DNA of 64,000 nucleotides from an uncultured Parachlamydiaceae bacterium (GCA_963703185.1 OY969795.1:375968-439967); one strand, 5' to 3'; positions 11,984-64,000 are shown, counted from the first letter of the stretch. The notes: generated by a model from the sequence alone, not told the origin. Numbers and translations are program-made.

Positions 11984-13983
11984 AGCTAGCGTAAGTTTAT
12001 TTCACGAAGCGAAATTTCTATCAACTTAAAATTTTTAAATTTCTTTATTTTAATGTCTTACGGCATTTTTGTTGTCTAAAAAAACGTATACTATGAAATA
12101 TAGTATTAATATGTTGATTTAAATGATAGCTTAGAATATATTTTTAATTTGTGTATACTAAATTTACGAGATAATAATGGCATCAATACAGTCAAGAATG
12201 TGTCGTGGGCATAAATATTGGTATATTGTCGAGTCAAGAAGGATTAATGGAAAACCTCGACCGATTGTAATTGAAAGTTTGGGTACGACGGCCAACTTAA
12301 TTGCCCGTCTCCAAGGTGAAAAATCGCAAAACGGATTCAAACCGTACTCACATGGTGCGGTTGCAACACTTCTTGTTCTCGCTAAAAAGCTTGATATCGT
12401 GTCTATTATCAATAAACACACTCTCGCGAATCGAAAATATTGGCCCAAGCAACCTATTCGCAATGATTTAACAGCAGGTATTACACTTCTTCTTGCAGCT
12501 GTCGGTAGAATTTGCATGCCAACCAGTAAACGAGGCTGGCACGATTGGGCTAAAACGACATCCTGCGATTATTTGCTAAGAATTTCTTCAGCAAAACTGG
12601 ATAGTCAACATTTTTGGGATTTAATGGATTGTATTCCGGTAGAAGCCATAGCTAAAATTGAGCTTGAAATTTTACAAAATGTTTTTCATCACTATCCTAT
12701 CAAAGGGGGAACGCTGTTATATGACACAACAAATTTCTATACATTTATCAATTCGACTAATGATCATTGCAGTATTCCTAAGAGAGGGAAAAACAAGCAA
12801 AAACGTGGAGACCTTCGTCAGGTAGGTTTAGCCCTTGCTGTTACAGAAGAGTATTACACCCCTCTTTTACATCACTCGTATCATGGAAATATTAACGACT
12901 GTAAAGTGTTTGGAGAAATAATTTCCTCGATCAAGATCAGAATGGAGTTGCTCAAAATAGATACACGCGAACATACCATTGTTTTTGATCGTGGTTGTAA
13001 TTCAAAAAAAAATCTCGAACAAATTAATGATCTTAACTTGCACTATATTGGAGCCCTTACTCCATCTCACCATAAAGACCTTTTAAAAAGAGCGGAAGGT
13101 AAGTTTATTGCTACTCAGGTTGGGGATAATGAACTTGAGATCTACCGTGAAAAACGAGATGTTTGGGGTGAAGAACGGACTGTTTTAGTTTTTGTCAGCC
13201 AAAGACTGAAGGATGGACAGTTTAGAGGTGTTTATCAAGCATTAGAGAAAAAAGAAAAACGTCTTAAAGAGATTCAAAAAGGTCTTTTAAGTCCAAGATC
13301 CAGAAAACGAACAAAGGATCAGTTAGAAAACCTAATGCAGAAACTTCTCAAGGGACAGTTCATGGATGGGTTAATAACTTATAACCTTGAGGAAAGAAGT
13401 CCTAGGCGCTGGAATATGACTTATCAAATAAGTGAAGACAAACTTGCTGATCTGGATGAGCGACTCGGATATCGCATTGTTATGACTAATCGTCATGACT
13501 GGGGCAGTGAAAAGATTATAAAGGCATTTTACGATCAATCAATTGTAGAAGGTGCTTTTAAAAATTTGAAAAACCCATATCACTTAGCGGTGACACCAGG
13601 ATTTCATTGGACGGATCAGAAATTAAGAATTCATTACATGATCTGTGTAATCGGATATCTTTTGGCTGCATTAGTTTGGTATGACGCTAAAAAAGCCGGT
13701 ATTAACACAACCTTGGATACTTTGCTTGATTCATTAAATGGCATTCATCTTGGAAGATTCGTTGACATGACAGGAAAACAGGGAAGGCCAAAAGTAACAT
13801 ATCGTTTAGAAGATCTATCAGAAGAACAAAAGGTTCTTGTCGACTTATTCAACCTATCAGAAATTCATCTCAAGCCACTCAAGATTGATGGCGTCAGTGT
13901 ATACAAATAAAAACAACTCTAAAGAACTAACTTCAAATGACTAGCGTAAGTTTATTTCGCTTCGCGAAATAAACTTACGCTAG
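11984..13983. mobile_element. IS1634/IS4-like insertion sequence IS#1, copy B
   Basis: Identical to 1804-3803. 30-bp terminal inverted repeats. Removing 11984-13983 joins the tnpB pieces in frame (GIDG|AVCRN). Confidence 0.8.
12177..13910 (+). CDS. IS1634/IS4-family DDE transposase (577 aa), copy B
   Basis: Translation identical to 1997-3730. Confidence 0.85.
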   Translation: MASIQSRMCRGHKYWYIVESRRINGKPRPIVIESLGTTANLIARLQGEKSQNGFKPYSHGAVATLLVLAKKLDIVSIINKHTLANRKYWPKQPIRNDLTAGITLLLAAVGRICMPTSKRGWHDWAKTTSCDYLLRISSAKLDSQHFWDLMDCIPVEAIAKIELEILQNVFHHYPIKGGTLLYDTTNFYTFINSTNDHCSIPKRGKNKQKRGDLRQVGLALAVTEEYYTPLLHHSYHGNINDCKVFGEIISSIKIRMELLKIDTREHTIVFDRGCNSKKNLEQINDLNLHYIGALTPSHHKDLLKRAEGKFIATQVGDNELEIYREKRDVWGEERTVLVFVSQRLKDGQFRGVYQALEKKEKRLKEIQKGLLSPRSRKRTKDQLENLMQKLLKGQFMDGLITYNLEERSPRRWNMTYQISEDKLADLDERLGYRIVMTNRHDWGSEKIIKAFYDQSIVEGAFKNLKNPYHLAVTPGFHWTDQKLRIHYMICVIGYLLAALVWYDAKKAGINTTLDTLLDSLNGIHLGRFVDMTGKQGRPKVTYRLEDLSEEQKVLVDLFNLSEIHLKPLKIDGVSVYK

Positions 13984-59894: not shown

Positions 59895-60421
59895 AACTAA
59901 TATTATTTTTTCTTTTAATACTTTTGAGTTCCTGTTTTGAGAATCAGCAACATAAATCTCAGCAACATGCATGCAAAATGAGAAATGAGGTTATAAGTAT
60001 CTTAACAAAACGACATAAAATGGAATCAACGGAACTCAGTTGTGGTGGCATGTTTGATTGTGTCCAAGATCTTTCTCTTACATTTGAAATCGAAGGACCA
60101 AAAACTAAAGAAGAATTAAGAAGGATCATGGTCGATTCTTTAGAAACTTTTCTCAAGGCTATTAATAATGATAAACAATTACGGCCCTATCTTATTATAT
60201 ATCCTTTTAGCATAAAACAAATTTATTTAACAATTTTTGTAAGAGATAAAGACCAATATTATATTTGGCATCCAGAAATTAGAAGAGTATCAATGCACCT
60301 GAATGGAATTACATATATAACTTATGATCAAGAGTACAACCGAACTGAGTTTGTTGAGACATATGAGGAAGCAAAAAAAATAATTAAATCAGAAAATCAA
60401 CATCCCAACAACATTAAATGA
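59885..60421 (+). CDS. Lipoprotein, candidate immunity protein 1
   Basis: Lipobox LLILLSS|C. The start (59873 or 59885) overlaps the rhs stop codon at 59892-59894. Confidence 0.6.
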   Translation: MQIKLILFFLLILLSSCFENQQHKSQQHACKMRNEVISILTKRHKMESTELSCGGMFDCVQDLSLTFEIEGPKTKEELRRIMVDSLETFLKAINNDKQLRPYLIIYPFSIKQIYLTIFVRDKDQYYIWHPEIRRVSMHLNGITYITYDQEYNRTEFVETYEEAKKIIKSENQHPNNIK

Positions 60422-60422
60422 C

Positions 60423-60989
60423 ATGCATACAATTATTTTTGTTTTTCTAAGTTTGTTTATTATTAAATCTTGTGGTTATAATTACATGCCTATAAGGCAT
60501 AACGCACATCCTGCATACCATGAATCTCAAAGTGCTTGGGAGAAATTTGCAATTACAATGAGTAAAAGATATCAATTAAATATTTTAAATTATGCGCCTT
60601 GTTATTTTAAGCCAGATCCGAAGTTCTGGGGAGTTTTGTTCTCAAATTCCGATTTTATAACAATCGATCAAGCAAGATTTGTCATGGTTGACCTAGTTAA
60701 AAATTATTTAAATTTAATCTACCAAGATCCATCTTTTAAAGAGAGGCTTTTGGACTATCCTTCGCAAAAAGAAATCAATATTAAGACTATTGAACAATAT
60801 TTGGGCATAAAGGTTGCAACATGGGATAAAGATGTAAATCGGCCGATGCGTCCTTATATCGCTGACATGATTTATCAAAATGGTTCTATTTCCTATTTTT
60901 ATGCTAATCCGGATACTCAAGCTTTGGAACTTGCCCTTACAGAAACTTTTGGTGAGGCTATTCAAATCCTCAAAACACAAAATCAATAA
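60423..60989 (+). CDS. Lipoprotein, candidate immunity protein 2 (distant paralog of the preceding gene)
   Basis: Lipobox LFIIKS|C. Starts 1 nt after the previous stop. Co-linear motifs with the previous gene (..MVD...L..I..D, G.I.Y...D, ET.eEA..I). Confidence 0.6.
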   Translation: MHTIIFVFLSLFIIKSCGYNYMPIRHNAHPAYHESQSAWEKFAITMSKRYQLNILNYAPCYFKPDPKFWGVLFSNSDFITIDQARFVMVDLVKNYLNLIYQDPSFKERLLDYPSQKEINIKTIEQYLGIKVATWDKDVNRPMRPYIADMIYQNGSISYFYANPDTQALELALTETFGEAIQILKTQNQ

Positions 60990-61053
60990 TAAGTTATCCA
61001 CATTCGTGGTGAATATAATAGATGGATAAATTAATGAAAATAAAACTATCAAT

Positions 61054-62001
61054 AGACTTCTTTCAAAACTCCCTAGTCAACTCTAAATTGTGAATTCCTG
61101 CGATCAAATTGAATCGCAAACCAAATCTCTTTCTTCGATTCCTATATCTGTCACTTATAATTTTAAATCTTTTTAAACTCCCTATCACATTCTCGTTCAC
61201 AACCCTTTCAGAAGATATTTCTCTATTTTGTTTTTTCTCTTCTACTGTTAGAGGCTTCTTCTTACTGGATTTTTTTGGAAGCCTTGAATTGCTCTGTAAT
61301 TTCTTTATTCCTGTGTATCCACTGTCCGTTATTCCACAACGATCTTTTGTCCACCGTACTCTGCTTTCTTTAAACAATTTAAAGTCGTGCTTCTTCCCAT
61401 TACTAAAATTTGTACAAATTACTTTTTTTGTTCTCTTATCTACAACAATCTGGCTCTTTATTGTATGTCTTTTCTTCTTACCTGAATAAAAATGTTTCTG
61501 CTTATTGTTCCGATTTTTTATTTTCTGCTTTTGTCTGACTTTTTTTTAGGGCGTTCTATTGGCGTTTCAGATGCATCTATAAGCAGAACTTCATATTCCA
61601 TATCACTTTTTAAAAGAGCTTTACGCCCTGGCAAAGCAAATGCGGGGTCTTTAATCAAAGTGTTCTCTACCCAGCGTACAATTTTGTATGCCACGCTTTC
61701 ACTTACTCCATAGCTTGTTGCTATATGAAAATAAGTCCTATATTCTCTAATGTATTCTAGAGCCATAAGCAGCCGATCTTCAATCGATAACCTACTCTTA
61801 CGTCCACCTCGAGTTTTTTTCTTCTGATCCGCTTCCCTTAAAATCTCGACCATTTTTTTAAACGTACTTTTTTTAACCCCTGTTAATCTGCGAAATTGTT
61901 CATCTGAGAATTCTTCTATTTGATCGTATTTCATTGATACCTCCACAAAGGCATCATATATACATTAAATTTTTTCAAAACGCTAGTTTTGAAAGAAGTC
62001 T
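61054..62001. mobile_element. IS5-family-like insertion sequence, 948 bp, copy 2 (inverted)
   Basis: Same ends as copy 1. 3-bp direct repeat AAT at 61051-61053 and 62002-62004. Confidence 0.85.
61063..61934 (-). CDS. DDE transposase with -1 frameshift, copy 2
   Basis: orfA is identical to copy 1. orfB differs at two residues (KIFK to KRFK, RKGFG to RKRFG). The heptamer is at 61539-61545 on the minus strand. Confidence 0.75.
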
Positions 62002-62202
62002 AATATTTGACGTAGCTCAATCAGCATAGGCGCATTGCTGGCTATGCAATGCCGCCGTAAAATTAGCTTTTATAATAAATCGATTGTCTTATTGCTTAAA
62101 TTGCTTGCTTTGACTTGATTTTATTTTATTTTCTAATAAATGCTACAATCAAATTATAAAAACAAGAGATTCTTGTTTATAAAGGCAACTTACCTCAGCT
62201 TT

Positions 62203-64000
62203 ATGAGCAGTTGCCAATATTTTTATGATTTGCAAGGTAATAAATCAAAAGTTGTGGAAAAAGTGGTCGCTCACAATTCACCCGACCGAGAAATTATCAC
62301 CCGTTGGACCTACGACTGCATGAAACGTGTCACACTTTGCACAGATGCTTGCGGAACACCTGAACAAATGTCTACACACTATCGCTATCTTCCAAATGGC
62401 ACCCTTGCCGGCATCGCCAAAGGCAACAGCGTTGAACTTTTGCATGAATATGATGCCCTTGGCAGACTTGTTTCTTTTCGAGGATCAGATCATTCATTCC
62501 ACTATATCTATACCTATGATCTCAACAATAATCCGATTCAAGTTAAGGATTTGATCAATCAAACCGAAATCAATCGATCGTTTGATGATAACAATCGTCT
62601 GCGCGAAGAACTTTTACCTAATAAACTACTTTCAAAGTACACCTACGACCGAATCGGCCGAGTGGTTAAACTACAGCTGCCGGATAGTAGTTTTATTGAG
62701 TACGATTATCAAGGGCTTCTTTTACAGCATATTCATCGCAAAGACAAAAGCGGCGCGATCAAATATACGCATACCTATGATCAATACGATCAAAGTCACA
62801 ATTTGTTAGCCATGACCTTGCCTGGAAATGCCGGAAAAGTCGCTTTTGATTATGACTGCCTGAACCAACCCACATCGATTCACGCGCCGCAATGGAATGA
62901 AATCGCGCATGATTATGATGCTGTAGGCAATGTCCTTCAAAAAACCTCCACTGATTCTTTAGGCGCTTACACCAGTCAGTTTGCCTATGATGGGATGTAT
63001 CAGCTCATTTCGGAAAGAGGAGTCTTTTCACACGATTACACAAATGACTCCGTTTATAATCACATTCAAAAAGATGGGCATTCACAGCAGTTTAATGCGC
63101 TTAATCAGTTGCTCGCAGATGCGACTTCAACCTACGAGTATGACGCAAATGGAAACTTGAAAAGTCTGATTAGGAACTCTGAAAAACAAACATTTGATTA
63201 CGATGCCCTTGGAAGACTCACACGGGTCACTACACAGGATAAACAATATTGCTATCAATATGATGCTTTTAACCGCCGCATGAGTAAAACATGCCTCGCA
63301 TGGAATGGAGAGGCGTGGGCAAAGGTGAATCAAGAGTTATACCTCTATAACGGCGGAAATGAAATCGGGTCGACAAATGAAAAGACCGAACTGCAGGAAC
63401 TGCGCGTTTTGGGAATGATCAAACAGATCGAACAAGGATCTAACGCCGCGATTGAACTGCAAGAAGAAGTGTTGGTGCCGATTAATGATCTTCGCGGAAA
63501 TACCGCCTGTCTTGTTGACCTTGAAGGCAAAGTCGTTGAATTTTATCGGTATAGTTCTTATGGAGATGAGGAAATCTACGATGCCTCAGGGCAGGTTGTT
63601 AAACACAGCCGCAACCCTTGGCGCTTTGCCGGAAAACGAAAAGACGCCGAAACCGGCTTCATCTTTTTTGGAGAACGCTATTATTCCACGCATACCTATA
63701 GCTGGATCACTCCCGATCCCATTCATCATGAAGGAGGTCCAAATCTCTATGCCTATGTAATGCATAATCCCCTATCTGTCTGGGATTCATATGGAGAAAC
63801 TGGTGAATATATCTTTCCCTATCTTCCCCCTTCATTATATGAGCTGGCATGGCCCTGCAGAGCTTTTTGCCTGACTGGAGATAGCGGCTATTCCATGCCG
63901 TACCTCCCTGATTTTGAACATTTCGCAGACGAAAAATCTCATTGTTTTGATCTCGGACGATATGAACTGCCAGACTTCAGAATTACTTTTGCCAATGGAA
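62203..64000 (+). CDS. Orphan rhs 3' fragment (YD repeats, core end and start of toxin domain), runs off window end
   Basis: 62218-64000 matches 57498-59280 with about ten substitutions. The frame is open from an in-frame ATG at 62140 or 62203 to the window end. It is absent from the ORF track because it has no stop in the window. Confidence 0.7.
   Translation, partial: MSSCQYFYDLQGNKSKVVEKVVAHNSPDREIITRWTYDCMKRVTLCTDACGTPEQMSTHYRYLPNGTLAGIAKGNSVELLHEYDALGRLVSFRGSDHSFHYIYTYDLNNNPIQVKDLINQTEINRSFDDNNRLREELLPNKLLSKYTYDRIGRVVKLQLPDSSFIEYDYQGLLLQHIHRKDKSGAIKYTHTYDQYDQSHNLLAMTLPGNAGKVAFDYDCLNQPTSIHAPQWNEIAHDYDAVGNVLQKTSTDSLGAYTSQFAYDGMYQLISERGVFSHDYTNDSVYNHIQKDGHSQQFNALNQLLADATSTYEYDANGNLKSLIRNSEKQTFDYDALGRLTRVTTQDKQYCYQYDAFNRRMSKTCLAWNGEAWAKVNQELYLYNGGNEIGSTNEKTELQELRVLGMIKQIEQGSNAAIELQEEVLVPINDLRGNTACLVDLEGKVVEFYRYSSYGDEEIYDASGQVVKHSRNPWRFAGKRKDAETGFIFFGERYYSTHTYSWITPDPIHHEGGPNLYAYVMHNPLSVWDSYGETGEYIFPYLPPSLYELAWPCRAFCLTGDSGYSMPYLPDFEHFADEKSHCFDLGRYELPDFRITFANG

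Follow-up and report, generated by a model that had tools for sequence, protein, structure and literature searches.

A stretch of 64,000 nucleotides from an uncultured Parachlamydiaceae bacterium (GCA_963703185.1 OY969795.1:375968-439967; hereafter the window, C1:375968-439967 of a genome that is a single contig of 2.67 Mb with 41% G+C) raises the question of how a 5'-truncated copy of an rhs gene came to lie, in the same orientation, 2.3 kb past the stop codon of the main rhs gene, and what such a copy might serve for. Rhs orphans are regarded as stores of alternative toxins and immunities; the origin of single orphans is usually inferred loosely, and the main/orphan arrangement has been studied best in enterobacteria. 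Considering the alignment of the two copies, the junction between them and the unequal divergence of their parts, we hold it probable that this orphan is a real 5'-truncated Rhs module, which keeps the 3' third of the shell together with a variant toxin tip and has immunity genes of its own, and that it arose from one tandem duplication, had its core gene-converted later and has a reserve or donor role. Its birth appears to be readable base by base, starting with a tandem duplication across a 9-bp microhomology, after which two elements inserted. The locus belongs among the ordinary Rhs orphan modules, a familiar form of toxin reserve in bacteria; its history is unusually well resolved, but it does not represent a new system.

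The orphan rhs module and its main counterpart

Ungapped comparison of 62218-64000 with 57498-59280 revealed 1,783 bp with 0 gaps and 10 substitutions (99.4% identity), beginning at codon 965 of the 1,762 codons of the main gene; the secretion/plug region at the N-terminus is absent from the orphan, as is most of the shell. The sequence-only reading of this DNA had claimed this duplication, about ten substitutions with particular codon effects, a cluster of eight changes at the 5' edge followed by about 1.2 kb of clean sequence and two changes near the end, and a start in the middle of a YD repeat; the exact alignment and the translation (DYFYDLQGN at the 5' end of the copy) bear this out in every respect. 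The changes lie at orphan positions 62268, 62400, 62403, 62480 (Q>R), 62496, 62512 (A>T), 62525 (S>N), 62575 (AGA/CGA), 63801 and 63850 (R>W), six of them synonymous and four non-synonymous. The first 358 bp hold eight of them (five synonymous, three non-synonymous); the 1,225 bp that follow are free of changes, and the other two (one synonymous and R>W) lie in the last 200 bp. Evenly spread differences, which the same reading had named as an outcome that would speak against it, were looked for, and clustering was found instead: with 10 changes placed uniformly, a maximal gap of 1,226 bp has P = 5e-5 in 200,000 simulations. Moreover, extension beyond the window, proposed earlier as a check for a toxin end and immunity genes, revealed that the homology continues through a variant tip and two lipoprotein immunity genes, to give main 57498-61054 against orphan 62218-65775 (3,559 aligned columns, 95.2%). 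Identity per 100 bp is 98-100% up to 64000 and then falls abruptly to about 83-98%, and the best two-part split of the differences (max-chi-squared breakpoint) lies at 59282/64002, with a chi-squared of 163. The features of the two units are as follows; positions above 64000 are on the window scale and come from following the copy into the genome sequence beyond the window.

54356-54646, in a different frame from 54606-59894: signal-peptide open reading frame (ORF) of main rhs (ORF list)
54606..59894, + strand: body of the main rhs gene, 1,762 codons (ORF list; PF05593 RHS_repeat, E = 5.8e-53)
57498..59280, + strand: main copy of the putatively homogenised segment, i.e., the last ~530 core codons and a 67-codon linker ending in ITFANG (10 differences in 1,783 bp)
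59281..59894, + strand: CT1, the diverged part of the main toxin tip, a predicted DUF687-type alpha/beta-hydrolase domain (synonymous divergence, dS, 0.24 from CT2; Ser-Asp-His kept)
59873..60989, + strand: immunity-like lipoprotein genes A1 (59873-60421) and B1 (60423-60989) (translations, identity matrix)
61019..61053, + strand: A', the start of a third immunity-A gene, interrupted by a miniature inverted-repeat transposable element (MITE) and then by an insertion sequence (IS); remaining bases at 62005-62008 and 62215-62226
61054..62001, - strand: IS5-like insertion sequence, 948 bp (HTH_Tnp_4, DDE_Tnp_4; target duplication AAT at 61051-61053 and 62002-62004)
62009..62214, + strand: MITE-like element, 206 bp (right terminal repeat 62190-62214, left one degenerate)
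62140..62217, + strand: 5' extension of the orphan frame into the MITE, with ATG 62140, TGCTACAAT and ATG 62203
62218..62226, + strand: 9-bp microhomology TATTTTTAT at the duplication junction, common to the immunity-A start and the rhs core (main 57498-57506)
62218..64000, + strand: orphan rhs core-end copy, whose ORF runs to 64608 (L001:8141-10609) and ends in CT2 (PF05593, E = 4e-27)
64593-65713: A2/B2, paralogues of A1/B1, 3' of CT2
ending at 68005: toxin-less pairs A3/B3 and A4/B4 (A2-B4 array L001:10594-14006, window-scale 64593-68005)
68291-68793 (L001:14292-14794): decayed rhs 5' remnant after the immunity array

The orphan core is recognized as PF05593 RHS_repeat (E = 4e-27) from its 620 residues inside the window. 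It ends in ...NPLSVWDSYGE, a degenerate PxxxxDPxGL-type motif, and the boundary between conserved and variable sequence follows 67 codons on, after ITFANG. Beyond it, the diverged 202 residues of CT2 are about 81% identical to those of CT1. An exhaustive HMMER search returned 1,100 relatives of the tip, many of them C-termini of 1,700-1,900-residue proteins and many others short ORFs starting in an Rhs core end; a 798-aa homologue (P0046) starts at a contig end and was set aside as evidence for similar orphans elsewhere. In the tip alignment, G67, D104, S146 and D197 are invariant and N66, G148 and H245 nearly so, and all of these are kept in both CT1 and CT2. The two tips differ at 40 positions, with the residue commoner in the family found in the orphan at 19 and in the main gene at 17, suggesting that the orphan tip is not decaying faster than the main one. 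Neither CT1 nor CT2 matched any Pfam family at E <= 1, and thus neither matched PF05095 (DUF687) significantly, and a PDB sequence search of the tip was empty. Of the 34 aligned homologues, 22 match PF05095 (best E = 6e-16), and the single homologue returned by a word-index search (P0009) carries this domain as well. The AlphaFold model of CT2 (pLDDT, the predicted local distance difference test score, 85.7) found its best PDB matches among thioesterases, carboxylesterases, cutinases and acyl-protein thioesterases, at template-modelling (TM) scores of 0.4-0.55, and the tips are thus predicted to have an alpha/beta-hydrolase fold with a nucleophile-elbow serine plus Asp and His (S146, D197, H245). 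Indirectly, through these homologues, they are placed in the same sequence family as the DUF687 (PF05095) alpha/beta-hydrolases of Chlamydia, with Ser-Asp-His conserved and the same fold predicted; the difference is that the domain is here the C-terminal cargo of an Rhs shell and not a stand-alone protein, and that the tips of this locus themselves stay below Pfam significance.

A and B are distantly related lipoprotein genes (about 25% identity). A1 and A2 share 81% and B1 and B2 92% amino-acid identity, and A2 and B2 lie directly 3' of CT2, as candidate immunity genes specific for that tip. As lipoproteins, these candidates would point to a periplasmic or membrane target of an esterase/lipase-type toxin, and they may already be protecting the cell. 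Among the four tandem A/B units, U1 and U3 agree completely (100%) over ~220 columns at the 3' end of B but show 64-89% identity elsewhere, and identity between U3 and U4 is 97-100% in the 5' part of B against 60-86% in A. At the level of sequence, this mosaic identity indicates repeated gene conversion between members of the array. Tandem immunity arrays shaped by recombination between paralogues have been described for esaG/tsaI of type VII secretion (T7SS; PMC9484751) and for the Vibrio cholerae type VI secretion system (T6SS; PMC5361080). The present array resembles them in its non-identical immunity genes 3' of a polymorphic toxin and in the mosaic identity between neighbours; it differs in that the repeat unit is an A+B lipoprotein pair and that the toxin tip, with one third of the Rhs shell, was also carried along in one duplication. 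Two side observations concern the array. B3 has ACG where B4 has the start codon ATG (L001:12291-12331; window-scale 66290-66330), and it can start only at an internal ATG past the signal peptide, so that B3 is probably a dead or non-exported copy. In addition, each B-to-A spacer (GTGAATATAATAGATGGA; window 61005-61020, L001:11729-11743 and 12878-12892) holds a perfect TATAAT that precedes the first ATG of the following A gene by 4 nt and could be a candidate internal promoter for the immunity genes.

The junction, its two insertions and the possible expression of the orphan

Two mobile elements separate the units. The first is an IS5-like element, assigned to this family by HTH_Tnp_4 (E = 1.5e-16), DDE_Tnp_4 (E = 2.3e-11) and an AAT/AAT target duplication, which occurs in 8 copies in the genome (7 besides that in the window) at 99.7-99.9% identity. 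Its flanks read ATGGATAAATTAATGAAAATAAAACTATCAAT on the left and AATATTT on the right and together form the start of an immunity-A gene, 1 base off the start of A3, the gene that follows B2. The IS sits in the left target duplication of the second element, the MITE at 62009-62214; once the IS and one AAT are removed, the MITE is bounded by a perfect 8-bp target duplication, CAATATTT, with the right copy at 62215-62222 and the left copy split by the IS. Removal of the MITE and of one duplication copy as well leaves the junction …ATGAAAATAAAACTATCAATATTTTTAT followed by GATTTGCAAGG…, in which the left side is immunity-A sequence through TATTTTTAT and the right side is rhs core from TATTTTTAT on. 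Moreover, subtracting the IS with its duplication (951) and the MITE with its duplication (214) from the spacing of 4,720 leaves 3,555 bp, just as long as the homology itself. This equality and the junction of A' start to core at TATTTTTAT argue for a single head-to-tail tandem duplication. In the course of events that we propose, a 3,555-bp unit comprising the 3' third of the core (from the middle of a YD repeat), the tip, A, B and the first 12 codons of the next A would have been duplicated head-to-tail, its ends being joined at the 9-bp microhomology; the 206-bp MITE would have entered the junction later, and the 948-bp IS5-like element would then have entered the left target duplication of the MITE. 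The A' start is out of frame with the rhs core, and thus the present open frame 5' of 62218 is supplied wholly by the MITE.

The AT-rich stretch of about 215 bp that the sequence-only reading had placed directly 5' of the copy is indeed there, but it is a transposable element, the 206-bp MITE. The first suspicion at 62009-62217 had been a piece of a tRNA, some structured RNA or a site of regulation; ARAGORN found nothing there, Rfam gave chance-level matches only, short-word BLAST found no second copy in this genome, and the inverted ends and the 8-bp duplications then showed the element to be a MITE. Its 3' end is a 26-nt sequence, TTACCTCAGCTTTATGAGCAGTTGC(C), which is unique in this genome and recurs in 11 of 151 genomes of the order (0 matches for the reversed control) and in 68 stretches of a species-level collection, almost all of them from Chlamydiota metagenome-assembled genomes (MAGs). 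Elsewhere this terminus forms the two inverted ends of elements of 72-861 bp, including elements of 103-212 bp with 8-bp duplications in Chlamydiota; one Parachlamydiaceae MAG holds many 103-bp copies with the termini GCAAC…GTTGC, and perfect 8-bp target duplications surround 8 of 9 family copies checked in three MAGs. Readings of the 26-mer as a sigma-54, sigma-28 or extracytoplasmic function (ECF) promoter, or as an integron attC-like or Xer-type site, lying 5' of effector-like genes (RING and LRR proteins), were dropped on account of these inverted pairs with 8-bp duplications. The family, with termini GCAACTGCTCATAAAGTTGAGGTAA…/…TTACCTCAACTTTATGAGCAGTTGC, is nearly confined to Chlamydiota, and copies were seen in the Chlamydiota MAG stretches L047, L075, L080, L085, L086, L100, L101, L107 and L112. 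In the window, the two ends of the MITE are asymmetric: the right repeat is perfect (26/26 identical to copies in another family), this preserved end adjoining the orphan, and the left is decayed (13/27; 62009-62035 against 62190-62214) despite the intact 8-bp duplication.

Target duplications of 8 bp are made by IS66-family transposases. The element resembles IS66-made MITEs in being short and non-coding, with terminal inverted repeats of about 25 bp and an 8-bp duplication, and in one genome the MITE repeat directly follows a C-terminal fragment of an IS66-family transposase. It differs from them in having one perfect and one decayed end, and its termini (GCAACTGCTCATAAAG...) are unlike the ends of the IS66 copy in the window. 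No autonomous partner was identified, the ORFs beside other copies of the MITE giving no transposase matches, and the sequence features together hint only weakly at a link to IS66. As a side observation, the neighbours of the terminus in other chlamydial genomes include eukaryote-like genes, namely, a RING finger, a leucine-rich repeat (LRR) and a PI3/PI4-kinase-like gene (L012:4401-4769, L043:2558-3958 and L041:768-2099, all on the - strand), which are probably merely sites that tolerate such elements.

Because the 5' end of the orphan frame lies in this MITE, the element also bears on expression. The sequence-only reading had drawn attention to the -10-like TGCTACAAT (62141-62149) and to two in-frame ATGs (62140 and 62203). 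These are present, and all of them are inside the MITE; ATG 62203, from which the public annotation starts an 801-aa protein, is part of the conserved terminal repeat TTTATGAGCAGTTGC, which is shared with many genomes. A promoter scan of the MITE stretch found no sigma-70-type site on the + strand; a -35 element is missing, and no Shine-Dalgarno sequence precedes either ATG. Since the box and both ATGs belong to an inserted element, they give no evidence for a native promoter, and the earlier suggestion that the orphan has its own promoter and start codons finds no support in that form. We consider it doubtful that the orphan is expressed independently, with the MITE providing promoter and start and with the 801-aa or a shorter internal product staying in the cell and acting in a toxin-antitoxin-like manner with the immunity proteins. 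The frame is open from 62140, the 801-aa protein is annotated, CT2 is intact and no more decayed than CT1, the repeat beside the orphan is perfect (26/26) next to a decayed left one, and orphan tips in Salmonella are expressed from internal promoters (PMC7043789). Against these points stand not only the missing -35, Shine-Dalgarno and promoter-scan signals, but also the stops that the ATG of the repeat meets within 4-8 codons in other genomes, the lipoprotein nature of the immunity proteins, which points to a periplasmic or membrane target and not to a cytoplasmic one, and the lack of a signal peptide, without which the shell fragment is not exportable. By analogy with the Salmonella orphan tips, there is a small chance that the MITE was co-opted, its preserved right repeat supplying the transcription and/or translation start of a stand-alone truncated Rhs-hydrolase that would be intracellular with lipoprotein partners. 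If this were true, a mobile element would have switched a silent toxin reserve into an expressed gene.

Unequal divergence of the duplicated parts

If the units come from one duplication event, all of their parts are of the same age, yet dS between unit 1 and unit 2 is 0 in the middle of the core (0 of 258 synonymous sites) and 0.068 over the first 358 bp of that core, while the toxin tip stands at 0.24 and immunity genes A and B at 0.28 and 0.14. For the tips, the ratio of non-synonymous to synonymous divergence (dN/dS) is 0.39, and for the immunity genes it lies at 0.24-0.35. Considering that parts of equal age differ at synonymous sites, where selection on the protein could not act in this way, recombination is required, and it is most simply read as gene conversion. 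After the duplication, the tips and immunity genes would have diverged (dS 0.14-0.28) while the 1.8-kb core was repeatedly homogenised with that of the main gene, the latest conversion tract covering at least the central 1,225 bp and stopping short of the 5' edge of the homology; the divergence at this edge would fit conversion tracts that seldom reach the end of a homology block. The proposal of the sequence-only reading that gene conversion, and not uniform divergence, had shaped the segment is thus strengthened by the single-duplication junction and by the contrast of dS 0 with 0.14-0.28. Given the equal age of the parts, identical cores set against diverged tips and immunity genes make clean evidence for concerted evolution of the shell beside divergence of toxin and immunity.

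The same profile, with the core low, divergence high from 59282 to about 60700 and identity back to 97-99% at the 3' end of B, would also result from the reverse mosaic, in which the local tandem duplication took place as above but the cores are simply young, and homologous recombination later brought a diverged allele of another strain into one unit in place of its CT-A-B part. We regard this as unlikely: it needs an outside donor and two crossovers and leaves the intermediate divergence of the 5' edge (dS 0.068) unexplained, conversion within the array is directly visible among the immunity units, and the decayed left end of the MITE suggests an old junction.

Classical displacement, the standard model for Rhs and contact-dependent inhibition (CDI) orphans (PMC3150448, PMC5361080), would have a foreign CT/immunity cassette with a piece of core enter the main gene and push the older tip downstream as the orphan, the core identity then being due to one of them having arrived recently; in its favour, the family of the toxin domain is widespread and frequently C-terminal in 1,700-1,900-aa proteins. 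Yet an immunity-A start follows B1 just as it follows B2, the spacing matches the homology length once the two insertions are subtracted, and the junction lies at a 9-bp microhomology. Displacement predicts none of these three features and tandem duplication predicts all of them; moreover, CT1 and CT2, A1 and A2, and B1 and B2 are mutually closest relatives, and displacement appears highly improbable here. Repeats beside multi-copy IS elements are typical sites of misassembly, but an assembly artefact, that is, a single rhs 3' region wrongly duplicated or mis-joined, can practically be dismissed as the cause, since the units differ by 10 core changes and by about 9% over the following 1.8 kb, have different toxin tips and immunity genes and are distinct all through their 3' halves, and have between them two elements, each with a clean target duplication, in a genome assembled as one 2.67-Mb contig.

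Several points nevertheless weigh against a tandemly duplicated and gene-converted donor module. The main rhs gene is apparently frameshifted from its signal peptide (ORFs 54356-54646 and 54606-59894), and thus a recombinant gene might not be exported either. In the left terminal repeat of the MITE, no more than 13 of 27 positions match (P about 0.009 in the register that the duplication sets), and an imported diverged allele over CT-A-B of one unit would yield a divergence profile identical to that expected under conversion. In addition, no match from another strain was found in 30 related genomes (at the DNA level), among exact-sequence clusters or in a search for full-length Rhs proteins with this tip; with no close relative or outgroup found, the order of events, the direction of conversion and the 10 substitutions cannot be polarised, nor can the events be dated.

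The module as a probable reserve, and related loci

By analogy with Rhs orphans elsewhere, the module is most likely a silent reserve set of toxin and immunity. One recombination in the shared core could join CT2 to the full-length gene and remove 4,720 bp, with CT1-A1-B1, the IS and the MITE being lost. In Salmonella LT2, main and orphan rhs recombine across 522 bp at 95% identity, with fusion of the orphan tip to the full-length gene (PMC3967940), and the earlier suggestion that the orphan serves as a recombination donor fits both these experiments and the 1,783 bp at 99.4% in direct orientation; such a role is what we infer for the present copy. The Salmonella Typhimurium LT2 pair rhs-main/rhs-CT-orphan (STM0291/STM0292; PMC3967940, PMC7043789) is alike in consisting of a full-length rhs, an immunity gene and then a 5'-truncated copy in direct orientation, with an orphan that shares the core and has a different tip and its own immunity gene, a geometry that permits a tip swap. 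However, the shared core here is 1,783 bp at 99.4% rather than 522 bp at 95%; both tips come from one family, as paralogues that have diverged (about 81%), whereas those of Salmonella are unrelated toxins; each tip has two lipoprotein immunity genes, with two toxin-less pairs after them; and the junction lets one read how the copy arose, by tandem duplication.

The genome holds at least 11 full-length rhs genes in 2.67 Mb. At other rhs loci (C1: 284008-285761, 1026207-1035140, 1107404-1108944, 2178331-2180208 and 2224309-2237839), downstream orphan repeats of the core end measure 405-1,567 bp and are 93-99% identical to their own main gene, suggesting that the pattern is general in this organism. 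The main/orphan arrangement is thereby extended to an environmental chlamydia with a dozen rhs genes, with little new biology beyond that. Lastly, the badly decayed 5' remnant at 68291-68793, from a second rhs gene, shares with main rhs the upstream region (83% identity to 54251-54415) and the signal-peptide start, MKRS…ADDD, which are followed by N-terminal fragments.

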